Source of the DNA: Patescibacteria group bacterium
Lineage (GTDB): Bacteria > Patescibacteriota > Minisyncoccia > UBA6257 > GWB1-50-10
DNA length: 64,000 bases
Assembly: GCA_023474215.1 (NCBI GenBank)
Contig: JAMCYI010000001.1
Location: forward strand, 2,836-66,835
Reading direction: 5' to 3'
The notes below the pieces were generated by a model. That model worked only from the letters and a program-made list of their open reading frames with translations, was not told the origin of the DNA and made no database searches. The translations under genes and the position numbers were made by a program. Below are positions 1-13,331 of this stretch, piece by piece; position 1 is the first letter of the stretch; each line of letters starts with the position of its first letter.

Positions 1-50
1 AAGGCGCGCGGGGGCAGGGCGAGAAAATCGTCGAGAACGTCAGGCGCGCC

Positions 51-605
51 GTGGAGGCGGAGAAGCTTCCGGGCGTCGCGGTCTCGATGCGTGAAGTCGA
101 AACGGAGAACGGCGAAAAGCGGCCATTCCTCTCGCTCGCCAACGGCAGGCTCAAGGGGTACGAGATGCTCGTCTCGGCCTCCGATTACGGCAACCGCCTC
201 GACGTCGGCTGGTATCTCGTCTTCGATTCTCCCTGGGCGCTCTTGAAGCGCCGAAGGGCGGCCGAGCAGCCGAAAAATCCGGAGAAGAGTCCCTCCATTT
301 CAGACTCGCTGATTTCGCTCGCGGGGCCGGGTGTGAAGATAGCTCAGGCGGTGGGGCGGGCGGGAGCCGCGTCGGCGGCGAAGGACAGAAAAGCGGATGA
401 AGAGGCGGCCTTCGCCATGGCGAGCGAAGGGCAGGGCTACCGCGATCCGGAAATGCTCACCATAGCCGAGAAGCGCGAGCTCCAGAATTACGTGGGCATC
501 GTGCACGGCATCCTGAAAAGCGAAGTGAAAGCGGCGATGGACGAACTCAAGCTCGATTTCTCCAAAGTGGACACAAAGTCGCAGGGATTCCTGAACGTCG
601 ACTGA
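51..605 (+). CDS. hypothetical protein (184 aa), first gene of 4-gene module; stop overlaps start of downstream ATPase (TGA 603-605 / ATG 607)
   Basis: ORF track; translational coupling with 607..1986; no recognisable motifs. Confidence 0.5.
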   Translation: MEAEKLPGVAVSMREVETENGEKRPFLSLANGRLKGYEMLVSASDYGNRLDVGWYLVFDSPWALLKRRRAAEQPKNPEKSPSISDSLISLAGPGVKIAQAVGRAGAASAAKDRKADEEAAFAMASEGQGYRDPEMLTIAEKRELQNYVGIVHGILKSEVKAAMDELKLDFSKVDTKSQGFLNVD

Positions 606-606
606 C

Positions 607-1986
607 ATGGACGAACCGCGCGTCTTCGGTGGCGAACCCTCGGAGGACATGCTCGCGCTCGGGTACGCCTGGGGCACGGACGAGAAGGGCGAGCTGTGGC
701 AGCTGAAAGCCGTCGCGCAGGAAGATCGCCTGCTCCATTTCCACGTGATCGGCGCTTCGGGCACTGGCAAGACGAAATTCCTAGAATACCTGATTGGGCA
801 GGACATCAAGAACGGATTCGGCTTCGGTGTGATCGATCCCCACGGCGACCTCATCAGGGACGTGAAAGAGTGGCTCGCCCTTGAGGATGGAGACCGCGGC
901 GAGCATGTTGTCCTCGTCGACCCCACCGACAAGAAGCGGACGGTCGCCTTCAATCCCCTCGAACTGGCTGACGGCACGGACGCGGCGCGGCAGGCACAGG
1001 AACTCGTCGTCGCCTTTAAAAAGATATACGAGGATTCGTGGGGGCAGCGGCTGGAAGGGATTTTGCGGAACACTTTGATCGCCCTCATCGAAAACCGCCT
1101 CACGCTCCTCGAACTACCCCTCTTCCTGAGGGACGCCGCGGTGCGCGCGAAGCTGCTCCGCAACGTGAAAAGCGAAACGTGCCGCGATTTCTTCGAAAAC
1201 GACTTCGAGAAATGGAGCGAGCGCACGAGGCCCGAATGGACCCAGTCGACGCTGAACAAGGTGGACGCGTTCCTCTCGGACAGCCGGATGCGGCAGATGT
1301 TCGCGCCGGCCAAGAGCTCGTTCAGCTTCAGGGATATCATGGACGGCAGGAAAATCCTGCTCGTGAACCTTTCTAAGGGAATCCTCGGCGAGGAGAGCAG
1401 CAAACTCCTGGGCTCCCTGCTCCTCGCGAAAATCCAGATGGCGGCCATGCAGCGGGCCGAAGTCAAGGAGGACGAACGGGTGCCTTTCTATTTATACATC
1501 GACGAGTTCCAGAACTTCGCCGAGGAGAGCTTCATGCGCATGCTGGACGAGACGAGAAAATACCGGCTCGCACTCACACTCGCCCACCAGCACCTGGAAC
1601 AGGTGTCGTTCAAACTCCGGCCGTCGCTCATGAACTGCGGGCTCCAGGCGTGCTTCCGCGTCGCCCCGGCGGACGCCGAGGTCCTCGCCAGAGGACTTTT
1701 CGCCGGATTGTACGCCAACATCAACGAGCGGGAGCAGTACGTCCAGCTCCTTCAATCGCTGGAGCCCCGCGCCTGCTTCGTGAGGAACAATGCAAGAGGC
1801 GGGATCATACAAATTTCCGTCCCTCCGCCTTTCAAGGGGCCGGAACGCGCCGGGCGGGAGGCGGACGATGACAGGATCGGCAGCCGCTACCTGCGGCGGC
1901 GCGAGGACATCGACAAGGAATACAGGGAAAGGCGCAGAACGCTCGTCGGTGGAGAGGACGAGGAGAATTTCTACGACTCTTTTTAA
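607..1986 (+). CDS. TrwB/TraD/VirD4-family (type IV coupling protein-like; FtsK/HerA superfamily) P-loop ATPase, soluble (no N-terminal TM)
   Basis: Walker A GASGTGKT followed by VIDPHGDL (cf. TrwB GATGTGKS...IVDPNGDM); Walker B YLYIDEFQNF; RKYRLALTLAHQ motif; paralog at 6804..8072. Confidence 0.7.
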   Translation: MDEPRVFGGEPSEDMLALGYAWGTDEKGELWQLKAVAQEDRLLHFHVIGASGTGKTKFLEYLIGQDIKNGFGFGVIDPHGDLIRDVKEWLALEDGDRGEHVVLVDPTDKKRTVAFNPLELADGTDAARQAQELVVAFKKIYEDSWGQRLEGILRNTLIALIENRLTLLELPLFLRDAAVRAKLLRNVKSETCRDFFENDFEKWSERTRPEWTQSTLNKVDAFLSDSRMRQMFAPAKSSFSFRDIMDGRKILLVNLSKGILGEESSKLLGSLLLAKIQMAAMQRAEVKEDERVPFYLYIDEFQNFAEESFMRMLDETRKYRLALTLAHQHLEQVSFKLRPSLMNCGLQACFRVAPADAEVLARGLFAGLYANINEREQYVQLLQSLEPRACFVRNNARGGIIQISVPPPFKGPERAGREADDDRIGSRYLRRREDIDKEYRERRRTLVGGEDEENFYDSF

Positions 1987-1989
1987 AAC

Positions 1990-2886
1990 ATGGGGATTGG
2001 TAAGGCGCATTTTATAAGGGAAGCCGAGGCGGCGCGCCGGAAGGCGCGCGAGGCGAAGGCGGAAGCCAAGACGGCGCGGCGGCAGTACGAGGAAACGGCC
2101 GCCGGACTCCAGCCGCGGATCGACGAACTGAGCCGCGAGGCGGACGAGCTGGCAGCGAAGTTTAAGCGGCTCTACGAAGAATCGCAGGAGCACTATGACG
2201 CGCGGGAAGGAGGCGCGGCGAAAGAATTAGCCGAGGAAGGCCACGAAGCGGAGGACCGTTGCCGTCGCCTGAACGCCGAAGCGAACGCTCTCCGGAGAGA
2301 GCTCAAGGGACTTTACGACAGATACGAAAACCTGAACAGGGAGGCGGCGCGGTTCGAGGAGGACGCCGAAACGGCCGAGGAGCAGGGGTGGCTCGTGCGG
2401 GAAACCGATGTGACGGGCTTCGGCGGGAGCGTCGCCAAGAGCAATTTCGCGGTCGAGGAATTCCTCGATACGTTCCCGCAGGGGTTGTTCCATAAGATAG
2501 AGCGCATCGAGTACCGCGCCGCGCACGAGGAGTACGAGAATGAAGGGGCGGAAGGGGTAACGAGCAGGCCGAACGAGTTCAGCCGCAAGAGGAAAATAAG
2601 AATATTCCCGCACGATGACGAGGCGCATTTCAAGAAAACCATAAGCCACGAAATAGGCCACGTCGCGTTTTACGAATTCCTGACATGGGAGGAAAAAGAC
2701 AGATGGGCGGCCCTGGCCAAAAAACTGGCGCTGGCCGGCAAGCGCATCAGTGGGTACGCTTGGAATTCCAACGAGCACTTCTGCGAATGTTTCTCCACGT
2801 TTAAAGTGGAGCCACAGGTACTAAAAAAATTCGACGAAGAGGTCTATACTTTTATGGAAGACACATTCAAATCATTGCCAAAATGA
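1990..2886 (+). CDS. coiled-coil protein with C-terminal zincin-like HExxH motif (putative metallopeptidase, SprT/WLM-like guess)
   Basis: N-terminal ~150 aa E/R/A-rich predicted coiled coil; SHEIGHVAFYEF HExxH motif with downstream NEHFCECF; ATG 4 nt after upstream stop. Confidence 0.5.
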   Translation: MGIGKAHFIREAEAARRKAREAKAEAKTARRQYEETAAGLQPRIDELSREADELAAKFKRLYEESQEHYDAREGGAAKELAEEGHEAEDRCRRLNAEANALRRELKGLYDRYENLNREAARFEEDAETAEEQGWLVRETDVTGFGGSVAKSNFAVEEFLDTFPQGLFHKIERIEYRAAHEEYENEGAEGVTSRPNEFSRKRKIRIFPHDDEAHFKKTISHEIGHVAFYEFLTWEEKDRWAALAKKLALAGKRISGYAWNSNEHFCECFSTFKVEPQVLKKFDEEVYTFMEDTFKSLPK

Positions 2887-3230
2887 AAAAACTGAAACTG
2901 TACGGGAAAAAAAGCGCATCGGACGAGATAGACCGCGAGAACGCCGTGGCGGTGATCTATGTTACCGGCAAGAAAGAGCTGATGGTTGAATCGGCGCATC
3001 CGGAGGTAAAGCGCGATATAGAAGAAGCCATTGTGGAGCTCATCAAAAAAGGCGGGCCGAAGGTAAGGCGGTGCGTTGAAAAAAATGGAGAAACAGTCAG
3101 AATCGCCACGCCACAGAAACTCGGCGATGCGGATTTTCTTGAAGCGCTGCGGGAAGAATATCCTTTCTGGTCAAGAGAGTTCAGCGGGTACGAGATAAAT
3201 CACTTGGTTTCAAGGGTGGCAGATGAATAG
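2883..3230 (+). CDS. hypothetical protein (115 aa), last gene of module (ATGA overlap with upstream gene)
   Basis: ORF track; 4-bp overlap coupling. Confidence 0.45.
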   Translation: MKKLKLYGKKSASDEIDRENAVAVIYVTGKKELMVESAHPEVKRDIEEAIVELIKKGGPKVRRCVEKNGETVRIATPQKLGDADFLEALREEYPFWSREFSGYEINHLVSRVADE

Positions 3231-3265
3231 AAGCCGCGGTTGCGGATTAAGAGCGCTTCTGCGTC

Positions 3266-4084
3266 TTACTGGCTCTTCGGCAGCACGACGTTCCCGAGGT
3301 CGATGTCGGCGTTGTCCATGGTGAACGACTTCTGCACCGTGCCGTAGCCGTCAGCCGAAAACTCGAACGTGTAGCTTCCGGCTGGAAATGATCCCAGACC
3401 GCCGTTTTGCAGAGCATTGGCCCAGAGAATGCCCATAGAACCGCAGAAGTCGCCGGCTCGCGAACTCGTTTTCAGGAACCACTCGTCCGAGATATTGCAG
3501 TTCACGGCACCCCACTTGATCCCGTCGAGCTTGGTGCCAACGGCGTTTACGACATTGACCCCGACACTGCCCCAGCGGGTGAAGACAATCTTTCCGAGAT
3601 CAATTCCTTGGGGCGGGAGATAAAATTTCTCCTCGACGGGGGTAAGCCCCGCAAGTCCTCCTTTCTCGGTATCGGGCACTTCCATCATGTACGTTCCGGG
3701 CGGGAGCGTCGTCGAAGGATCGCTCTCGCTCTTCGCCGTCATGGCGAGAACGCCGTCTTTTATCACGGCTCTCCCCGCATACTCGCCCAGAGAGTCGTAT
3801 ATCCGTACATCCGCGCCGTTATCCCACGGATCGGTGATGTCGTCATACGACTTGCCGTACTGGTCGACGACATACGCCGTGACCGTTCCCGGCTTGACCT
3901 GCGGAGCGACCACAGGTTTCGCGGCTGAGACGCTGCTTCCCGGTGCCGCCTGCTTCGGAACAATCGCGGATGGCTGGTTTCCGGCGGACTGGCTCGGGGC
4001 ACCGCTGAAGGGATGGGCGTAATAGACGGACGCGCCCGCGACCACCACGGCGACCGCTACGTAAAGAACTATTTTCGTTTTCAT
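3266..4084 (-). CDS. membrane-anchored/secreted hypothetical protein (272 aa)
   Basis: N-terminal hydrophobic helix MKTKIVLYVAVAVVVAGASVYY; G/S/T/P-rich extracellular region. Confidence 0.55.
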   Translation of the reverse strand: MKTKIVLYVAVAVVVAGASVYYAHPFSGAPSQSAGNQPSAIVPKQAAPGSSVSAAKPVVAPQVKPGTVTAYVVDQYGKSYDDITDPWDNGADVRIYDSLGEYAGRAVIKDGVLAMTAKSESDPSTTLPPGTYMMEVPDTEKGGLAGLTPVEEKFYLPPQGIDLGKIVFTRWGSVGVNVVNAVGTKLDGIKWGAVNCNISDEWFLKTSSRAGDFCGSMGILWANALQNGGLGSFPAGSYTFEFSADGYGTVQKSFTMDNADIDLGNVVLPKSQ

Positions 4085-4094
4085 ATATGTAGAA

Positions 4095-4505
4095 TTATTC
4101 CGACTTTTGCTTCTCCTCTTTCTCCTCCTCCTTTTTCGCCCTGTACGGAATCATAGCCGTGTTGATGCCCATCTTCGCCATCCTTCCCCCTCCGGAGAAA
4201 ATTAGGAAGACGAAGAGGTACTGGAGCAGGGCGTCGCCCAGCTTCTCGGCGTTTTGGCCGACGGCCGCGAGCAGTTCGACGCTGTTCGTCGCCCCGAAAC
4301 GGGCGCCGCTCTCCGTGGCTGCGCCCGGCGCGACGTTGATCTTCGCTTCGAGTATCGAGGGGATGTCGTTCCCGCGGAACACCTGATACCCGTACCAGAC
4401 GCCGAAGCCGACAACGACCGCTCCGGCCGCGATGAGGATCAGGCTCAAGATGGCGTAATATTTTTTCTCGTGTTTCATGTCATTGAGTGTTGCCGACGGT
4501 CTCAC
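4095..4505 (-). CDS. small membrane protein
   Basis: TM helix YYAILSLILIAAGAVVVGFGVWYGY; K/E-rich tail. Confidence 0.45.
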   Translation of the reverse strand: MRPSATLNDMKHEKKYYAILSLILIAAGAVVVGFGVWYGYQVFRGNDIPSILEAKINVAPGAATESGARFGATNSVELLAAVGQNAEKLGDALLQYLFVFLIFSGGGRMAKMGINTAMIPYRAKKEEEKEEKQKSE

Positions 4506-4683
4506 TGTTCAACTCCGAAAGGCACTTCTCGACTTCGCTCGCGGGAACGGTGAACGCGGCGTATGGCTTGTACTCCTTGAAAGCGCAGTCTTCGTAATTG
4601 GGCGCGGGAGCGCTTTTGAGAAAAAAGGCGACAGCGACGAGCGCAGCCACAGCTATCGCTATGAGCCAGATAAGGGATTTCAT
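4480..4683 (-). CDS. small secreted protein (67 aa, signal peptide)
   Basis: MKSLIWLIAIAVAALVAVAFF N-terminus; operon position. Confidence 0.35.
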   Translation of the reverse strand: MKSLIWLIAIAVAALVAVAFFLKSAPAPNYEDCAFKEYKPYAAFTVPASEVEKCLSELNSETVGNTQ

Positions 4684-4916
4684 GTTCTAGACTCCTCCTT
4701 TGTCCGCGCGAGCCGGTTGATCAGGAGGCACACCGCGAAGTACAGCCACAGGGCGTTCCAGAATATCGCGGGCGCTATGAATTTCCGCGGATTATCGGAC
4801 GACAGGAAAAAAATGAATACCCCAGCAATCAGAAAGACGGCGAACAGCACCCAGTACGTAATGTGACGCTTTTTGGAAAGCGGAACTCCGAAAACTAGAC
4901 GTAATACTTTGTTCAT
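4680..4916 (-). CDS. small membrane protein (2 TM)
   Basis: two hydrophobic helices; 4-bp overlap with downstream gene. Confidence 0.4.
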   Translation of the reverse strand: MNKVLRLVFGVPLSKKRHITYWVLFAVFLIAGVFIFFLSSDNPRKFIAPAIFWNALWLYFAVCLLINRLARTKEESRT

Positions 4917-5178
4917 GTGTTCCTAACAAATAAACCCGACCTTTTTCTCTGGCCGGGTTCGACAAACTGCTCTGTGTGAAAACACAAAGCTCCCAGCCAG
5001 TGATGCCTTGCGGCACCCATACAGGTTTCCCCGTATGACCAGTAACGGAGCTCTGACTAGGAGCTTTCTATTCGTTACTGGTTTTTTGAACCCTGCCGCA
5101 GGCTTCCCTACGGGTTAGGTCTCATGTTTAGTTGTATGGAGTCAATATTAACACACTGGACAAGGAGGGCAAGACAAC

Positions 5179-5207
5179 AAAACGGCTACCTAAATATAGC
5201 CGTTTTT
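5179..5207 (+). terminator. hairpin aaaacggcta-cctaaata-tagccgtttt followed by TGC; bidirectional-looking terminator
   Basis: perfect 10-bp stem with A/T tracts on both sides. Confidence 0.5.
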
Positions 5208-5385
5208 GCTTAAAACTCATCTCCTGCGGATGTATAGATAACCGACGAGCAGTCCTAACACAAAGCCGAGGAGGGAGAAATCTATCTTCTCCACGGTTAT
5301 AAAGGAACGCCTGATTCGCTGAAGCGACCAGGAATTCCTGATTGCACTTCAGCGACCTTTGGTTATTTATACAATGAAAACACGA

Positions 5386-6594
5386 TTATGTCAATTGCTG
5401 GAATATGCGACCCATCCTAACGGGGACCACTGCCCCATTCCTCCAAACGCGAAGAGTTACGGGGATATTATTGTTTTTGCGTAGAACGTCGATTAGATAT
5501 TTAAGGGAAAAATGCTGCTCATCAATAATATCCTCATTCACCCCGACAATGACATCCCCTGCTCTAAGTCCGAATTTCTCAGCGATTGATCCAGGTACAA
5601 CGGCGGGGTTTTTCTTGTTGTCCTGGAGGAGCGCACCATGGTCAATTGGTAAATTTCGCTCATTGGCGATACCCGCTGTCAGTGGAATATAGTGTATCCC
5701 GAGCTGTCGCTGGTGCAAATACTCTCTCTTCATCTCTCTAATCGCTTTAGACACTTCGTTCTTAGCTAGCTGTTTCTCGTACTTAGCTATCATCTGTTCC
5801 TCATCATACCCGAACATCTTATAAAACAATTCTTTGCATCCAAGTTTTATCCCTTCCCAAAATCCGACTTCCCGATAATATCCCCGGTGGTGTAACCGAT
5901 CGCCTATCTGTTTGAGAGACGTTTCTAGACGGTCTATAGACTCATCAATTAGTTCTTCTGAACGGTAAAAGGCAGTCCGTTCGTCGTATTCAACGTAGAT
6001 TTCTCTTTGCCATATCGTCTTATAAAGTTCACCTCTAATATTTTGACTCAGGTAGGAGTATCTTATTCGAAACGCCAAATCCTCGAGATGTTGAGACGAT
6101 TCCAGCGTTCTCCGGCCTCTCGACAGCTCAAGATATTCTTTCTCATCATCCGTAAGGGGATATTTCTTACGGAACAGTCCGTCTATTGGTCTACCGAGAT
6201 ACTTATAGTAAGAGCTGCGAGAGTTACCGAGCATTTTTTCCAATGGCTCAACGTAGCGATCAAAAAGGGTGTCTTCCTTGTCAACGTCCTCTCTGGAATC
6301 GTCGTCAAAAAACTCGGAGAGGCTAAGGAGCAAATCCATGACAGGATTGATAATCTCCCTAATAGTCTCCTTCCTTACCTCGCCTTTTTCTTGTAAATCC
6401 GCTGCAGCAGATTCCAATAGTTTCTTGTGTGCTTCTCTTAACTGCTGGATACCAGCGTTGACGATTTCGCTGTCTTTCTGCAGGAGGCGAACTTCGATGT
6501 CTCTTTTGGCGTTTCTCCAAACTACAATAACGCCGAGTACGCCAGCGAAAAATGCGATTACTATGTTAACGAGTAGGTTGAGTAAAGAACCCAC
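5386..6594 (-). CDS. membrane-anchored protein with C-terminal PDZ domain (402 aa), low-GC gene
   Basis: N-terminal TM LLVNIVIAFFAGVLGVIVVW; C-terminal GDVIVGVNEDII...VTLRVWRNG PDZ-like; AT-rich codon usage vs neighbours. Confidence 0.6.
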   Translation of the reverse strand: MGSLLNLLVNIVIAFFAGVLGVIVVWRNAKRDIEVRLLQKDSEIVNAGIQQLREAHKKLLESAAADLQEKGEVRKETIREIINPVMDLLLSLSEFFDDDSREDVDKEDTLFDRYVEPLEKMLGNSRSSYYKYLGRPIDGLFRKKYPLTDDEKEYLELSRGRRTLESSQHLEDLAFRIRYSYLSQNIRGELYKTIWQREIYVEYDERTAFYRSEELIDESIDRLETSLKQIGDRLHHRGYYREVGFWEGIKLGCKELFYKMFGYDEEQMIAKYEKQLAKNEVSKAIREMKREYLHQRQLGIHYIPLTAGIANERNLPIDHGALLQDNKKNPAVVPGSIAEKFGLRAGDVIVGVNEDIIDEQHFSLKYLIDVLRKNNNIPVTLRVWRNGAVVPVRMGRIFQQLT

Positions 6595-6778
6595 ATTCCT
6601 ATTGTATCACGCCTTCTTTGATTTTCTTCCTTGGAAAATGCTATCCTTCTCCTGTCATTACCCGGAATCTTCGGGCATCGCCCGGCTTTCCGGAGTGGGG
6701 CGTCGAGAGTCAACGCTTCGCTCTCCCCCGCGCGGCTTCTCTCAGGCCGCGCTGGGGATGGAATGAGCTGGTACAATG

Positions 6779-6803
6779 AAAGGGTCGTCAGCCCTTTTTT
6801 ATT
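6779..6803 (+). terminator. hairpin aaaggg-tcgtcag-cccttt plus T-run abutting TTG start of paralog ATPase; terminator/attenuator-like
   Basis: stem-loop followed by TTTTTTATTTT. Confidence 0.4.
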
Positions 6804-8072
6804 TTGGAAATCCTCTCCATCGGCAAAGCCGCCTCCCGCTCAGGAAGCGTCGAGTTCGGCATCAAATCTCCCGACCGGCGGCACCACATGTACCTCGTGG
6901 GCCAGACCGGCACCGGCAAGTCCACCTTCCTCAAGAATGCGGCGGTTCAAGACTTGCGGGCTGGGCGCGGCCTTGCGGTAATCGATCCTCATGGCGCGCT
7001 TGTCGAGGACATCCTGCGGTTCATTCCCAGGCGCCGGACGGGCGAGGTCGCGTATTTCAATCCGACTGACGCCGATCATCCCGTCGGCCTTAATATCCTC
7101 GAGGCGAGGAGCGAGAACGAGCGGAACCTGGTCGCCTCGTCCCTCATCTCGATTTTCAAATATCTCTGGAAGGACTTCTGGGGTCCTCGGCTGGAGCATG
7201 TTTTCCACAATGCAATCCTCGCCCTAATGGACACGCCGGATTCGACGCTCCTCAGCGTGTACCGGATGCTTGCCGACGACGCCTTCCGCGCGAAGGTCGT
7301 CGGGAGGGCGAAGGACCCGGTCGTGAGGTTCTTCTGGGAAGAGGATTTCGAGAAATATCCGGCGCGGTTCAAGAAGGAAGTGACGTCGCCGATCCAGAAC
7401 AAGATCGGGCAGCTCCTCACGAACAGCTGCATTCGGAACATCGTCGGGCAAGCCGAGAGCACGCTCGACCTGCGGTTCCTGATGGACAACCAGAGGATTC
7501 TCTTTGTAAATCTCGCCAAAGGCGTGATCGGCGAGGATAAGGCAAACCTCCTAGGATCGGTGCTCGTGACGAAACTGTACCTCGCGGCGCTCGAGAGGCA
7601 GACAGTGCCGGAGGACAAGCGCCGGGATTTCTACCTTTATATCGACGAATTCCAGAATTTTTCGACGGAAGCGTTTCCGTCGATGTTGTCCGAATCCCGC
7701 AAGTACCGGCTGAACCTGATTCTGGCGCACCAGTATCTCCGCCAGCTCCCGGAGAGCGTGCGCCACGCCGTCTTCGGGAACGTCGGGACGCTCTCCGCCT
7801 TCCGCGTCGGCGGGCTCGACGCAGAGGAGCTGGCCAAGGAATTCCAGCCGGACTTCGAGCGGGACGATCTCACCCATATCGAGAACTACCGCTTCTGCAC
7901 AAGGCTCATGATCGACGGCAAGCGGTCAAAGCCGTTCTCGGCTGAAACGCTCCCGCCTCCCCGCCTGCGGGGCGACGAGGCGGACGCCGAGACGGTCATA
8001 AGGATTTCTCAAGAGCGTTTTGCTTCAAAACGTGAAGACGTGGAACAAGCGGTCGAAAAATGGTTCGCCTGA
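6804..8072 (+). CDS. TrwB/TraD/VirD4-family P-loop ATPase, paralog of 607..1986 (apparent TTG start)
   Basis: GQTGTGKST...VIDPHGAL, YLYIDEFQNF, RKYRLNLILAHQ; roughly 40% identity to first copy by eye. Confidence 0.7.
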   Translation: MEILSIGKAASRSGSVEFGIKSPDRRHHMYLVGQTGTGKSTFLKNAAVQDLRAGRGLAVIDPHGALVEDILRFIPRRRTGEVAYFNPTDADHPVGLNILEARSENERNLVASSLISIFKYLWKDFWGPRLEHVFHNAILALMDTPDSTLLSVYRMLADDAFRAKVVGRAKDPVVRFFWEEDFEKYPARFKKEVTSPIQNKIGQLLTNSCIRNIVGQAESTLDLRFLMDNQRILFVNLAKGVIGEDKANLLGSVLVTKLYLAALERQTVPEDKRRDFYLYIDEFQNFSTEAFPSMLSESRKYRLNLILAHQYLRQLPESVRHAVFGNVGTLSAFRVGGLDAEELAKEFQPDFERDDLTHIENYRFCTRLMIDGKRSKPFSAETLPPPRLRGDEADAETVIRISQERFASKREDVEQAVEKWFA

Positions 8073-8418
8073 GGCGAATCCGTTTTTCGCGTCGCGATCT
8101 CGGCTGCGCGGCCTCGAGCTTTTTATTTTGCCTTCCCCCCACCGCGCGCAGCGAAAAGAGAAAAGCTCCGGCGAAGGAGAGCGGAGGCCCGAGGATGCCC
8201 CGAGCCCGAAGCGGAAGCGAGGGGTGAAGGGGCAATGAGGACATGTTGTCGGGGGCCGGAGCCGCAAGAACGGAGAGAAAATATTCCGTCGTTTGCGGGC
8301 GGATCCGCCTTCCGGAGGCAGTCGTTCCGGAACGACCCCTTGAACGACCCCTTTGCGAATCAGAAATTTCTGGTAAAATAGGTTCTGATACCGGCGCGTA
8401 AACTCACTAAACCAAAGG

Positions 8419-8446
8419 CCGGTGACTCTTGTCACCGGTTTTTGGT
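8419..8446 (+). terminator. rho-independent terminator ccggtgac-tctt-gtcaccgg + TTTTT
   Basis: perfect 8-bp GC stem and T-run; flanked by direct ggttctgat. Confidence 0.7.
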
Positions 8447-8632
8447 TCTGATGTTTTCAAGGAGAGGATAAGAACCTTTGAAAGGGGGTCGGGGAAGAGC
8501 GGAAGCGCTTCCCCGTGGAGGAATGAGTCCGCGAAAGCGGACGGACTCAAAACCGAGGGTTTTGAGGGAGCGAAGCGACAGGTTCCATATCCTTCCCTGC
8601 ACACACTTTGAAAAATCGGCCTTCTAAAACTC

Positions 8633-8660
8633 GACCAGCTCACTGCTGGTCTTGTTTTTT
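8633..8660 (+). terminator. terminator gaccagc-tcact-gctggtc + cTTGTTTTTT (overlaps copy 1 of 35-bp direct repeat)
   Basis: 7-bp stem + T-run. Confidence 0.6.
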
Positions 8661-8673
8661 GAAGATTCGAGCC
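8639..8673 (+). repeat. 35-bp exact direct repeat copy 1 (ctcactgctggtcttgttttttgaagattcgagcc)
   Basis: identical to 10314..10348. Confidence 0.9.
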
Positions 8674-9070
8674 AGGTCGACATTCAACCATAACCCTAGG
8701 CGATAAGAGCACTTCTAGGTGGTATAATAACAATGACTCAGGGGGGGTCAGTTTTGTTTATCGCGAAAACAAGATAGCTATGAAGTTACCAAAGAGGGTA
8801 GATGTAAAAAATTCAAAAGGTCGATATTATATTCTAACCTAACTCTCTTTTCACTACCATAAAGTGGGGGGGCGGCTAAGGTAAACATTATGAGTAAAGA
8901 AAACCCTCGAACGGAGCGGGAAAAGAAAAGAGCCCGTGAGGAAAAACAAATAAAAAAGACGGGGGACAAATTAAAGGCAAAGCGTCTCCAGCGGCATCAG
9001 CATCCGCTACCGCCACATTAAAGGTGTACATTGAAGAAATAAAAGCCGGATTAACTTGTTAACAAGTCAT

Positions 9071-9616
9071 ATGAGAAAAAAGATTGTTGTCGGCGCAATA
9101 ATTTTGGTGGCGATAGTCATAGCGTACATCGGTGTCAGAGTAGCGTATAACCAGTATGAATGGAATCATAGTAAAGCTACGATAGCTAGTCCTGCCGTAG
9201 TAAACCCAACTCTTACAGGTAGCGTTACCACTGTTGGAAACGGCATAAGCATTACAGCTGATGCCGTGCAATCATCCGGTGTTATTAGTCAGACTTCTGC
9301 TGGAGATAATTCCGTGCTCAACTTAGTCGGTCCGGCGTTAGTGAAAATAACGGTAAACACTTCAGGTAGTAACTGCGCACTGGCTAATGCGTTGGGCGGG
9401 AGCTTCATGTATGGTCAATTCAAAACGCCAATTAGCGGATCTGCCGAAAAAACAGTCAGTTTTCCAGCGGATGGGATAATGTTCATGAGCGGCGTGTGTA
9501 TGGATTCCAGCGGCAATCCTATTGGTTTACCCAATAGTTTGATCGTGGAAACCGTCTCTAAAGGTGAGACGTTGGATAACCACGGCGCTCTTCAGACGGT
9601 TAACATGCCATGGTGA
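9071..9616 (+). CDS. membrane-anchored extracellular protein, paralog A
   Basis: N-terminal TM KKIVVGAIILVAIVIAYIG; shares VQSSGVI / CMDSSGNP motifs with 9703..10296. Confidence 0.55.
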   Translation: MRKKIVVGAIILVAIVIAYIGVRVAYNQYEWNHSKATIASPAVVNPTLTGSVTTVGNGISITADAVQSSGVISQTSAGDNSVLNLVGPALVKITVNTSGSNCALANALGGSFMYGQFKTPISGSAEKTVSFPADGIMFMSGVCMDSSGNPIGLPNSLIVETVSKGETLDNHGALQTVNMPW

Positions 9617-9702
9617 ACACTGCCGAAATGTAAGGGTTTGCTCTAATTTTATCCTTCCCTTCCTACGGCACATTATCATTACCCCATACAAATAATTAGA
9701 TC

Positions 9703-10296
9703 ATGAACGAAAAACCGAGAAAGAAAATATGGAGACATTGGTGGTTCTGGACGTTGATAGCGGTTTGTATAATGGCCTTGGCGGTCGCAGTGGTGCGCCT
9801 GCGCAACCAGAACAAGGTGCATTTGCCCAGTGGTCTTCCACAGAAACCTGTCAGTATGCCGTTTACTGGTACGTATGCCGCCTCGTCAACCGGCTATGCC
9901 AGCATATCACTGAGTGTTTTACAGTCATCCGGCATCATCAAAGCCGGAAGTTATAACGGTAAGGTGGGTACGCCCATCGGAGTATCTGCGGAAATAATGG
10001 GGCCAGCCGAACTTGATGTGAGAATCGATTCGATGTCCCAGGTTTGTATAATCTCGCATTCACTAGATATTACAACCGGGAGGGGCACATCATTAACCCA
10101 TGCGGTTGAGGTAACGCTCAACGTGCCCCCAGGCGGATTCATTAACTACTACGTCTTGTGCAAGGATTCGAACGGCAGCTACCAACTTTCTGAGTTAACG
10201 GTTAATGTATGGAATCCTGCCACGTACGGTACGGAGGCGATGTCCAAAGAGGCATTGACGCAAATTAACCTACCTGGCCTTAACAGCGTTCCTTAA
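9703..10296 (+). CDS. membrane-anchored extracellular protein, paralog B
   Basis: N-terminal TM WWFWTLIAVCIMALAVAVV; LQSSGII, CKDSNGS motifs. Confidence 0.55.
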   Translation: MNEKPRKKIWRHWWFWTLIAVCIMALAVAVVRLRNQNKVHLPSGLPQKPVSMPFTGTYAASSTGYASISLSVLQSSGIIKAGSYNGKVGTPIGVSAEIMGPAELDVRIDSMSQVCIISHSLDITTGRGTSLTHAVEVTLNVPPGGFINYYVLCKDSNGSYQLSELTVNVWNPATYGTEAMSKEALTQINLPGLNSVP

Positions 10297-10313
10297 GGGC
10301 ACTAATATAAAGG

Positions 10314-10348
10314 CTCACTGCTGGTCTTGTTTTTTGAAGATTCGAGCC
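10314..10348 (+). repeat. 35-bp exact direct repeat copy 2
   Basis: identical to 8639..8673. Confidence 0.9.
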
Positions 10349-10508
10349 GGCAATTTTCGGCAATAGGGGAGAGAAGCCACTTTTTGGCGATGGCGAGCGA
10401 TTTCTCTTTTTGAATACTTAGCTTTTCACCCTCCGCCAAAAAGTTCGAGCCGAAACTGAATCTACACCTTGAAAGTCGCCTCAGTAGAGTATCTATCACT
10501 CATATTTA

Positions 10509-11024
10509 CTAGATATCGTCTTGCCCAATTCCCATTTCTTTTCTCATTTCTTTTTTGACGTCTGCTAAGGCGGCCAGTAATTTCGTAATATGTTCTTCCT
10601 TTTGCAAACCAGAAAGACCTTGAGATTTTCCGACTAATTGAGCAAAGACCCTCGCTTTTTCTTCTAGCTCTTCTTCACCAAATAAGTTGATGGGGGACAT
10701 TGCGTTGCGAGTTTCTTCGCTATCTTTATCTCTAGCCTCTTTCATTTCCTTGGCAAGCGTCTCAAGTTGTTCTTGGGAAAAATTAGAGGTATCTATTTCT
10801 TCTTCAATCTGGATATCCCTAATGGTCTTGATGAAGTGAGAAAGAGCGTTTACGTAGGCCGTCTTCTTCGCGTCGAAAAGCCTCTGCTTCCTTTGCTCTT
10901 CTTTCTGAAATTTGATTTGGATTTGCAGGCGTCTCTCCTCGGATTTGGTTTGTCTACTTGTTGCCCATGCGGCGATGATGCCTCCAGATATGGTCCCCAA
11001 GAGAGTGAAAATTGCTATAAGCAT
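10509..11024 (-). CDS. membrane-anchored coiled-coil protein (171 aa)
   Basis: N-terminal TM then K/E/Q-rich helical region. Confidence 0.45.
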   Translation of the reverse strand: MLIAIFTLLGTISGGIIAAWATSRQTKSEERRLQIQIKFQKEEQRKQRLFDAKKTAYVNALSHFIKTIRDIQIEEEIDTSNFSQEQLETLAKEMKEARDKDSEETRNAMSPINLFGEEELEEKARVFAQLVGKSQGLSGLQKEEHITKLLAALADVKKEMRKEMGIGQDDI

Positions 11025-11118
11025 ACCTTTTATCTCATTAATTCTCCGACTTTTAGTCGTGCCTGGAAGAGGGCACGGGATATGCTGTTATCTTAACATT
11101 TTTAGCTATAATGATGGC

Positions 11119-11703
11119 ATGGATCCACTTGAGTTTTTAAAGAGTAGGGTTAAAGAAGGGTCAGAGGAACAGCTTAATAATGTAATTGCTAAGGGTGTAT
11201 TGAAACTGGGCGACGAGCAGATTGCCACGGTCGCATTCGTTTTTTGGCTGGTCTATATGGCCGAAACTGAATTAAACGCCGCTACGAGCCAGTCGTGGGC
11301 CATCGTGGAGAAGTTCGCCCCTCAAGGTGTAAAAGAGATGGTAGCGGACAGGGTGCAAAAATTAGCAGGAGGACGCAAAAAGTTAGATCTCAAAAATCTT
11401 GAGTATTTCTCAGATAAGATTAGGGTCTACGAGGCACTACTCGGAGACAACAAACTAAAGAGACTTCTATGGAAATTGAACGATATAAGAAACGACCTGA
11501 GCCACAATCGCGTTAGCAATCTTAGCTACGATGGTGAGTCACTCTCATTAAGGAGCACCAAGGAAAAAATTTTGATTGATTATTTTGACGCTGTTTTGAA
11601 TAGCGATGTCACTACATCGGACACCTGGAACTCTCTTAGCGAAGATAACAAAAAGGTGGTGAAGTCGATTGCGCGAGAGGTCAAAAAACAGGGCCTCAGT
11701 TAA
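11119..11703 (+). CDS. hypothetical protein with HEPN-like R-N-x3-H motif (KLNDIRNDLSHNR)
   Basis: RNDLSH fits HEPN Rx4-6H with polar residue after R; TATAAT at 11106-11111; low-GC island. Confidence 0.4.
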   Translation: MDPLEFLKSRVKEGSEEQLNNVIAKGVLKLGDEQIATVAFVFWLVYMAETELNAATSQSWAIVEKFAPQGVKEMVADRVQKLAGGRKKLDLKNLEYFSDKIRVYEALLGDNKLKRLLWKLNDIRNDLSHNRVSNLSYDGESLSLRSTKEKILIDYFDAVLNSDVTTSDTWNSLSEDNKKVVKSIAREVKKQGLS

Positions 11704-12311
11704 ATCGGCATTATTCTAGCTCCGCGCCGGGCGAATTCTTTGGATATCCTTTCCAAACCATCTAGGTCAGCTTGCGTTGCAACACTGGCATCCTTGAATA
11801 CATCTGCATGCATAAGGGTAAAGCCATCTATAAAAAGCTTGATTAGTGTGTCGGGAGATATGAACGCAACAGTATGGCCGAGTTTTTTAAATTTCTCATC
11901 CCAGTCCCTTATAACGTCCGTGCTTTCGGAACCGTTAGGCATATTTATGGAAACTCCATTTTCTGGCTCTGGCAAACCGAATGCGTGGACGATTGCACAA
12001 CGGAATTTATACAAAAACTTTTCGTTGACCAGTTTAAGATAAGGGTGGGTTTTATAGGTCGCATTGCTTTCGATAACGCAATATTTTTTCATCCACTCTT
12101 CCAAGAGAGGACGGCCGCCCAGACTGCGGTTATAGAAAGCGTTGTATAAGTTACTGGCGATTTCCAAAAACGAAAATGCTACTAACGCCCTCACCCTAAC
12201 GAACTGCTGATCTTTTCTGAGAACTCCAATTGCGCCGGATATCTCCTCAACCATTTCCCCTAGTCTATCATCGACATCTTTTTTCACCTCCTCGTATCTC
12301 TTGATATCCAT
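11700..12311 (-). CDS. hypothetical protein (203 aa) convergent with and overlapping the HEPN-like gene by 4 bp
   Basis: ORF track; no recognised motif. Confidence 0.45.
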   Translation of the reverse strand: MDIKRYEEVKKDVDDRLGEMVEEISGAIGVLRKDQQFVRVRALVAFSFLEIASNLYNAFYNRSLGGRPLLEEWMKKYCVIESNATYKTHPYLKLVNEKFLYKFRCAIVHAFGLPEPENGVSINMPNGSESTDVIRDWDEKFKKLGHTVAFISPDTLIKLFIDGFTLMHADVFKDASVATQADLDGLERISKEFARRGARIMPI

Positions 12312-12549
12312 GTTGTATGTTTTTAATTCTAAACCACCTCGTAGCTAGAGGGTAGTGGGAAATCCTCCTGCCCGTGCGCGGGAGTGGCGGGGCAGAGGCA
12401 GAACCGCGCGGAGAATGAACCATGATGTGCTAAGGAGGGAAAAATGGCGGAAGGGAAATTTTCTCCCGCCTTATCTTGTGCGCATCTTTCTCTTAAGATA
12501 ATTTCATAACGCTCCCCGTACTGAATTCGGATGTGTTAGAATATATGCA

Positions 12550-12951
12550 ATGAGCGAGGGGGAGAAAATCATAAATTGGCTAGAGAGAAATTGGTTTAGA
12601 TTAGGTGTACTTCTAATTCTGATTGCGATCGGAGCCGCTATTGTCTATTACATTGCAATCTTCTTACCGGACAGGCAATCTCAACTGGATCAGGAGAAGA
12701 AGGATGCTGTTATAGCCAACACGGTGTCCAGAAATAAATGCCTAGCTAATGCGGCGAGTGATTATCGAGACCTTTTAAAAGAGAACACCTACAGTGATGG
12801 AACCTTCAAGAGTACAAACGCTGAGCAGTATGTAGAAAATAAGTATACAGATGAGAAAGACGAATGTTTCAAGGAATACCCAATTAACGCGGATATCCAA
12901 TTGCCCTACGCGGACCCAACGAACATCTTCTATAATTTGCTTAACAAATAG
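12550..12951 (+). CDS. small membrane-anchored protein
   Basis: TM WFRLGVLLILIAIGAAIVYYIAIFL. Confidence 0.5.
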   Translation: MSEGEKIINWLERNWFRLGVLLILIAIGAAIVYYIAIFLPDRQSQLDQEKKDAVIANTVSRNKCLANAASDYRDLLKENTYSDGTFKSTNAEQYVENKYTDEKDECFKEYPINADIQLPYADPTNIFYNLLNK

Positions 12952-13331
12952 ATAAATCTATTTTACAACGCTCTCGGAATGCTTTTTGAATTGCCTGCGA
13001 TACATGAAAAAGGTTCTAACGTCCTCGACTACCGCGCACATTAAACCCCCCGACCCCCGTCTGGGACACCCCCGGGTTTCTCATCAGCCGCACTTTGTGC
13101 GGCTCCTTCCAACACGGGGATTTAATTCTTCCTTCTGCTTTGCAGAAGGATTCTCGTTTTTGGAAGAGAGGATTCGAACAGGGAAGGGGTCGGGAAACCG
13201 GGAGGTTTCCCGTCGCGAAGCTCACGTCAACGCTCGGGTTCGTGGGAGCGAGTTGCTACAGAGCAACTCGCGACGTTTGACTCCTCTCCTGGGCACAAAG
13301 ATTTCATCAAATATCTGCTATAATCCAGATT

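Follow-up and report, generated by a model that had tools for sequence, protein, structure and literature searches.

PrrC is located within a type I restriction-modification (R-M) locus, and both PrrC and RloC are HEPN anticodon nucleases that lie latent in R-M loci. Members of the HEPN superfamily carry an Rx4-6H motif with a polar residue after the arginine. This motif closes core helix-3 and opens the loop that leads to helix-4, and helix-2 contributes a nearby conserved acidic residue (Anantharaman et al. 2013, PMC3710099). HEPN proteins are metal-independent RNases in which two motifs build the active site in an oligomer (PMC3710099; HepS, PMC13043305; AbiV, bioRxiv 10.1101/2024.05.05.592566). 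HepS, for 'HEPN Solo', is encoded by the Salmonella Gifsy-1 prophage (PDB 9oij, 9oik); it is an inactive tetramer that is opened by a phage tail-tip peptide and then cleaves anticodons (PMC13043305). AbiV is a HEPN RNase of 201 amino acids (aa) acting in abortive infection in Lactococcus (PDB 9bj5), and its motif RNHKSKH (R-x5-H) is not conserved across the AbiV family (bioRxiv 10.1101/2024.05.05.592566). The Dazbog system consists of DzbA and DzbB, with a DUF262 protein beside DzbB (PMC10952713). Here we analyse two genes, A and B, in a 64,000-nucleotide stretch of contig JAMCYI010000001.1 from a Patescibacteria group bacterium, referred to below as the window. Our analysis suggests that A and B are two independent single-domain HEPN proteins of two unclassified families, which probably act as solo defence or toxin nucleases. 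They most likely became neighbours in this lineage alone, where the locus is low in GC, varies between strains and adjoins a tRNA-Tyr integration hotspot. A search of the literature on HEPN proteins in Patescibacteria found nothing describing either family.

A and B are real, conserved genes whose start codons both agree with the N-termini of their homologues. They are convergent and share four base pairs at their 3' ends, just as described in the original prediction, and no terminator-like site lies between them. The GC content of the pair is 43.7% versus 51.3% for the window, the 1.8th percentile among equal-sized windows, and essentially no other 3.9 kb of the window is as low in GC as positions 9056-12951. 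The proposal of a low-GC island thus holds, and its setting varies between strains. The bare motif is not probative, because 66 of the 98 open reading frames (ORFs) of at least 150 aa in the window carry Rx4-6H; R[polar]x3H is present in 23 of these ORFs and RNx3H in four. The motif of A stands above this chance level because it is invariant across the family and correctly placed in the predicted fold.

A first search recovered 44 homologues of A, and 125 clusters emerged when 1.84 billion representatives were searched exhaustively with a profile. Named relatives of A and B come from metagenome-assembled genomes of Patescibacteria, Minisyncoccia, Parcubacteria, Saccharibacteria and Pacebacteria. 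The translation of A contains KLNDIRNDLSHNR, including R124-N-D-L-S-H129, and the block IRNDLSHNR is near-invariant in 30 close relatives. In an alignment of 82 family members at 19-54% identity (alignment A3), E49, R124 and H129 are the only invariant columns, and N125, F40 and Y137 are conserved in at least 90% of the sequences, which bears out the R-N-x3-H signature first noticed in A. An AlphaFold2 (AF2) model built from the family alignment (predicted local distance difference test score, pLDDT, 89.4; predicted template modelling score, pTM, 0.80) is all-alpha with one small hairpin. The model is confident. Only about 30 residues precede the HEPN core, and helix 112-128 ends, at its C terminus, in the motif, which runs into a loop and then the hairpin. 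Fold comparison of the model lists YutE, AF0298, AMPylated HepT and HI0074, with AbiF, HepS and Csm6 lower. A predicted structure lacking the HEPN helical fold had been named as the outcome that would speak against the assignment, and this is not what A gave.

At the sequence level, the CARF_HEPN model of PADLOC matches 24 of the 82 family members (best E 7.7e-8), and further members match its Csx1, Csm6, Cas13 and reverse-transcriptase-associated HEPN models; the copy of A in the window does not itself reach E 0.05 against any of these. HEPN_Apea, HEPN_Swt1, HEPN_Cthe2314, RiboL-PSP-HEPN and Abi_2 recur among Pfam matches below the gathering cut-offs. The Abi_2 match is weak and confined to two distant relatives (E 0.035-0.055). 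HepS is the sole PDB sequence reached by profiles of the A family, aligned over YFxxKIK...IRNxxxH at E 0.25-0.87, and a profile of the distant subgroup (A6) found no match among PDB sequences.

The B family is smaller, with 29 clusters among 5.8 billion in a profile search. The original prediction treated the 203-aa gene as an unrecognisable partner of A. This does not hold, since B is itself HEPN-like and has an invariant Rx4H motif of its own. R104, H109 and E50 are invariant in the 28 sequences of its alignment (A5), within which the motif block reads YKFR(N/C)xxxH. The residue after the arginine is asparagine in 19 sequences and cysteine in nine, and the window copy has cysteine (RCAIVH). 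The model of B, again confident (pLDDT 89.8, pTM 0.85), begins with two long helices, the second of which contains E50, followed by a helical insert with an invariant H89 and by helix 97-110, which has the motif at its end. A small alpha/beta insertion comes next, and two more helices complete the model. Fold comparison lists AMPylated HepT (8xdj), TTHA0636, YutE, 7ae2 and 5yep, and also sacsin HEPN, Csm6, HI0074, AF0298 and Cas13h1. At the sequence level, support for B is slight. HEPN_Cthe2314 is matched below threshold by 6 of 17 B members in Pfam. The PADLOC DzbB model is matched over the motif region by 8 of the 28 members (best E 6e-5), and in the window copy this match spans only about 14 residues around the motif.

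Both proteins show three features of the superfamily: Rx4-6H with a polar residue after the arginine, a motif at the end of helix-3 in the AF2 models, and an acidic residue in helix-2, E49 in A and E50 in B, as judged from the alignments and the AF2 helices. We assign A to the HEPN superfamily with high confidence, as a member of a family without a curated model, and B is likely to belong there as well. One or both proteins could instead be helical bundles without RNase activity, A an MtlR-like regulator or ligand-binding HEPN protein and B a DinB-like metal-binding four-helix bundle, with the arginine and histidine serving in structure or binding. We find this unlikely, as the exact constellation of a helix-2 acid and R-polar-x3-H at the end of helix-3 stays invariant while the rest of the sequence drifts, in A to about 20% identity, whereas the motif was lost in part of the MtlR family (PMC3710099). 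For B, HEPN entries rank above DinB entries in the fold comparison, and the invariant H89 lies in the insert that separates helix-2 from helix-3, the site of an extra catalytic histidine in AbiV-type HEPN proteins (PMC3710099).

Among the described systems, A shares the architecture of HepS: it stands alone, is shorter than 250 aa and has no co-occurring partner, and its neighbours differ at every locus. However, its sequence match to HepS is non-significant, and its structural similarity to HepS does not exceed that to further HEPN proteins. HepS is prophage-borne, whereas prophage and viral contigs yielded neither A nor B. CARF_HEPN provides the best sequence-level link of the A family, and Csm6 is the top Foldseek match of its model, though a non-significant one. 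Yet A, at 194 aa, has no CARF domain according to Pfam, NCBIfam and PADLOC, and no cas genes were seen among the neighbours scanned. Without this sensor, A cannot sense cyclic oligoadenylate as Csm6 does.

B differs from AbiV in that its Rx4H is strictly conserved, it has no match to the Pfam AbiV family, and no inhibitory gene or transcript resembling abiV2 was identified for it. Unlike the type III toxin-antitoxin-like HEPN systems AbiD/AbiF (Abi_2) and AbiV, A and B have neither a match to the family hidden Markov models nor, beside the gene, an RNA inhibitor or an array of repeats. A ToxI/AbiF-type RNA antitoxin was considered and rejected: no tandem repeats occur near A or B, no Rfam family matches at the locus, and the leader 5' of B does not fold unusually (z = -1.0). 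HEPN-MNT pairs (HepT/MntA) differ in having an adjacent minimal nucleotidyltransferase, which was seen neither in the window nor beside A or B relatives at the homologous loci examined; A and B are also 50-70 aa longer, with extra helices. A Pfam scan of the flanking genes (607-12951) found no nucleotidyltransferase, known antitoxin or cas domain, in line with the earlier statement that no recognisable antitoxin or nucleotidyltransferase partner is present. Because neither family has a conserved antitoxin, nucleotidyltransferase or RNA partner, A and B are most likely solo nucleases. Dazbog differs in that no DUF262 gene lies beside B in the window.

A distant relative of A resembles PrrC in its setting. 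P0140 (206 aa, Pacebacteria) ends a type I R-M operon in L030 (1-4621), directly after HsdR-HsdM-HsdS-DUF6602, and is followed downstream by a gene for an FtsK_gamma protein. Other relatives of A abut Mrr or GmrSD genes: one adjoins an Mrr-type endonuclease and a 1578-aa SF1 helicase (L001), and another has a GmrSD_N+HNH enzyme 32 nucleotides (nt) upstream (L002). Unlike PrrC and RloC, A has no ABC-ATPase N-terminal domain, and the window copy adjoins no R-M gene. The remaining neighbours of A relatives include a reverse transcriptase (L003), a Bro-N protein (L004), a DUF559 endonuclease-like gene (L005), a SNF2 helicase with DUF2779 and HNH (L019), and a large serine recombinase (L021).

Relatives of B occur in similar company. 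One lies in an island with TIR, Shedu (SduA_C), resolvase and Rep genes (L011), another adjoins Mrr, NmeDI, PIN and HTH genes (L008), and others adjoin tyrosine integrases (L014, L016) or RelB (L012). A HerA/TrwB-like ATPase was seen near a further B relative (L034). The serine recombinases of the A locus L021 (5112-6446) and the B locus L011 (8377-9678) are 59% identical, suggesting that both families are carried on similar or related mobile elements.

The window locus itself lies in a variable place. In strains of about 95% identity, an intact tRNA-Tyr(GTA) and a terminator lie directly upstream of a trio consisting of a 171-aa gene, A and B (window 8580-8675 versus L023 173-328). In the window, just the last 25 or so nt of this tRNA are kept; ARAGORN detected no tRNA at the remnant, and the intact tRNA-Tyr is not in the window. 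The remnant looks like an att-type trace of an element that integrated into the tRNA 3' end. To its left, positions 1-8072 are GC-rich (57-63% in the first 4 kb versus 51% overall) and contain two genes for TrwB/VirD4-like coupling proteins (607-1986 and 6804-8072), as well as a DUF1771 coiled-coil protein and a PDZ protein. The tRNA remnant together with foreign-looking, high-GC DNA on its left is the pattern expected from an element integrating at a tRNA 3' end, and 1-8072 is possibly an integrated, conjugative-like element that displaced tRNA-Tyr.

Two segments that vary between strains flank the pair. A 1.64 kb segment (8676-10312) between the two copies of a perfect 36-nt direct repeat is missing from three strains (L023-L025). 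It encodes two N-terminally membrane-anchored proteins (9056-9616 and 9703-10296) that are distant paralogues (23% identity, E 7e-6). The second strain-level indel is a 452-bp segment (12515-12966) with a gene for a 133-aa membrane protein (12550-12951), missing from L023, L025 and L026.

We then compared the three genes of the trio with those of a strain of about 95% identity (A at L023 1097-1681). A differs by 10 non-synonymous and 4 synonymous changes, a ratio of non-synonymous to synonymous rates (dN/dS) of about 0.66. B has 9 and 14 (dN/dS 0.16) and the 171-aa gene 4 and 11 (dN/dS 0.09); the latter is under strong purifying selection. The excess in A is significant against its two neighbours pooled (10:4 versus 13:25, Fisher p = 0.027). 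The changes in A spare E49, R124-H129 and Y137, and are located in the N-terminal helices, the insert, the hairpin and the C-terminal region. They hint at relaxed or diversifying selection on peripheral surfaces, although the counts are small. Synonymous divergence of A (dS 0.034) amounts to roughly a third of the values for its two flanking genes (0.11-0.12). Possible reasons are diversifying selection, synonymous-site constraint and a recent exchange of alleles.

Several observations weigh against solo defence nucleases as the interpretation of A and B. Foldseek comparison of the A model with the PDB gave nothing significant (the best match was Csm6 at E 0.16, with TM-scores of at most 0.32). 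In scans with Pfam, NCBIfam and PADLOC, the two window proteins gave nothing above noise and passed no curated model, and profiles of B against PDB sequences gave no significant link to a known HEPN protein. Scans of viral contigs found no relatives of either family. In L027 (3666-4525), the 174-aa P0132, distantly related to A, lies within a heat-shock operon with the order hrcA-grpE-[109 aa]-[HEPN-like]-hsp20-dnaK...dnaJ; the unannotated 109-aa gene precedes it with a 5-nt gap, and the two may form a two-gene cassette or point to a stress-linked role of that branch. A relative of B comes after RecJ and RNase H (L033). We infer the catalysis, oligomeric state, latency, trigger and substrate of A and B, and their defence role by guilt by association.

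The heat-shock and RecJ/RNase H neighbourhoods, the lack of relatives on viral contigs, and the ordinary purifying selection on B and the 171-aa gene would also be consistent with active HEPN RNases that serve in housekeeping or stress, for example in RNA processing, in RNA turnover or as a brake on growth under stress, rather than against phage. Such a role appears improbable, however, given how patchily both families are distributed (125 clusters in 1.84 billion for A and 29 in 5.8 billion for B). Their position differs in nearly every genome and is often beside restriction enzymes, TIR, Shedu, recombinases or an R-M operon; the window locus is low in GC, strain-variable and beside a tRNA; and A carries the non-synonymous excess described above. 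We therefore retain solo defence or toxin nucleases as the preferred interpretation.

We also asked how far A and B, which lie tail to tail, belong together. Comparison of the two families with hhalign gave a probability below 1%, so homology between A and B is rejected and no relation is detectable. Ten independent A loci (L001-L007, from GTDB genomes, and L017, L019 and L021) and about 11 independent B loci (L008, L011, L012, L014, L016, L032-L036 and the P0046 contig, some with short flanks) were searched by hmmsearch with both profiles, except that the P0046 contig was judged by its gene list only. No relative of B was found within about 6 kb at the A loci and none of A at the B loci. A and B as a conserved pair are thus rejected, as the two profiles co-occur in no fetched locus besides those of the window population. 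The pair and the 171-aa gene recur only in four short contigs (L023-L026) about 95% identical to the window, which are the same population. P0046, at 70% identity the closest non-identical homologue of B, has same-strand neighbours of differing sizes, and its gene list contains no convergent gene of the size of A.

All-against-all BLAST of the neighbours likewise rejected the 171-aa gene, or any other neighbour, as a conserved partner of A; no gene similar to the 171-aa neighbour lies beside any other member of the A family. The sole neighbour shared between B loci is a protein of about 276 aa in L008 and L011 that is not in the window. The two copies (L008 7062-7928, reverse strand; L011 4938-5768, forward strand) are 24% identical (E 2e-19) and have no Pfam domain. 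This protein may be an occasional partner of B or just an island gene.

The overlap does not point to coupling either. An A homologue shares the same 4-bp convergent overlap with an unrelated 87-aa gene (L017 6582-6585) and a B homologue with an unrelated 140-aa gene (L008 6624-6627), indicating that the overlap is a trait of compact genomes. It is thus very unlikely that A and B form one two-gene module here, with B neutralising or regulating A, the two proteins making a mixed HEPN nuclease, or the transcripts pairing in antisense: the pair keeps its overlap in the four related contigs, no terminator separates the genes, and both are HEPN-like in a superfamily whose sites are built from two domains (PMC3710099, PMC13043305), but at about 95% identity the strains are too similar for a common gene order to be independent evidence, and the two families are unrelated, overlap unrelated partners elsewhere and do not co-occur at the loci above, P0046 included. 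Of the toxin or abortive-infection-type module in the original prediction, the two-gene module is not upheld, and the role itself is plausible from the neighbourhoods.

Table 1. Features of the A/B locus, in window coordinates
Feature	Position	Strand	Basis or remark
Gene A	11119..11703	+	194 aa, stand-alone HEPN-like protein; unclassified family, mostly Patescibacteria
Gene B	11700..12311	-	203 aa, stand-alone HEPN-like protein; small family (29 clusters), unrelated to A
TTAA, both stop codons of convergent A and B	11700..11703	.	4-bp 3' overlap, read from the sequence
Rx4H motif codons of A (R124-N-D-L-S-H129)	11488..11505	+	Translation
E49 codon of A	11263..11265	+	Acidic residue in long helix 32-66 (helix-2 equivalent); alignment A3
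Rx4H motif codons of B (R104-C-A-I-V-H109)	11985..12002	-	Translation; missed in the original prediction
E50 codon of B	12162..12164	-	Acidic residue in helix 35-60 (helix-2 equivalent); alignment A5 and model
171-aa gene, divergent from A	10509..11024	-	Context only; no Pfam match; dN/dS 0.09
tRNA-Tyr 3'-end remnant, then terminator	8580..8605	+	Strain comparison; last ~25 nt kept
36-nt perfect direct repeat, copy 1	8638..8673	+	3' half of the terminator, T-run and 13 further nt
36-nt direct repeat, copy 2	10313..10348	+	Left edge of the block common to strains L023-L026

The surroundings of the locus contain further features. A LOOT RNA (RF03000) lies at 5002-5121 on the reverse strand, inside the putative foreign segment, with 88.6 bits against a gathering threshold of 46.4. 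The distribution reported for this RNA motif is consistent with an origin of the window among the Patescibacteria. Two GC-rich stretches of about 350-500 nt, 8073-8580 and 12967-13331, contain only implausible ORFs and have no Rfam match; the best hit there, Pseudomonas sRNA P26 at 8379-8441, is below threshold (E 0.08). Positions 12967-13179 are about 90% conserved in strain L023. Both stretches could be untranslated or RNA-coding sequence. Downstream is ordinary core-genome content, with a ribosomal protein L10 leader (RF00557; 24118-24246, forward strand, 66 bits) and tRNA-Val (25325), tRNA-Glu (31341) and tRNA-Gly (49999).

If A and B are solo nucleases, a mechanism can be proposed by analogy with described HEPN proteins. 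Each would probably homo-oligomerise, and two Rx4H motifs together with the helix-2 glutamate would form a composite, metal-independent RNase site capable of cutting tRNA, rRNA or mRNA. The proteins are probably kept latent by their own conformation or by their variable neighbours. An infection cue would then switch them on, as in HepS, PrrC or AbiV-type abortive infection, and the outcome would be growth arrest or abortive infection. A bolder version, which we regard as quite improbable, takes A and B as the first members of two solo HEPN effector families that are mostly restricted to bacteria of the candidate phyla radiation (CPR). Each would directly sense a protein derived from an infection or a mobile element, and in this lineage the two might also be coupled into a dual-nuclease defence locus. 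The sensing surfaces would then be the hairpin after the motif, with the near-invariant Y137 of A, and the N- and C-terminal helices in which the strain changes of A are found. Coupling may occur through the overlapping convergent transcripts, which no terminator separates, or through a mixed complex.

What is new here is two small, CPR-centred families of the well-known HEPN superfamily with a solo architecture, and the novelty is modest. The immune and toxin systems of Patescibacteria are poorly charted and are missed by standard family models; here, the HEPN RNase signature appears in two genes that Pfam, NCBIfam and PADLOC leave unassigned. The locus also illustrates that adjacent, overlapping genes in a variable island may work separately, and that neighbourhoods need to be compared before a module is called. 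If active, A and B would add two compact single-gene families to the HepS-type solo nucleases, raising the question of how a toxic RNase is silenced without an antitoxin.

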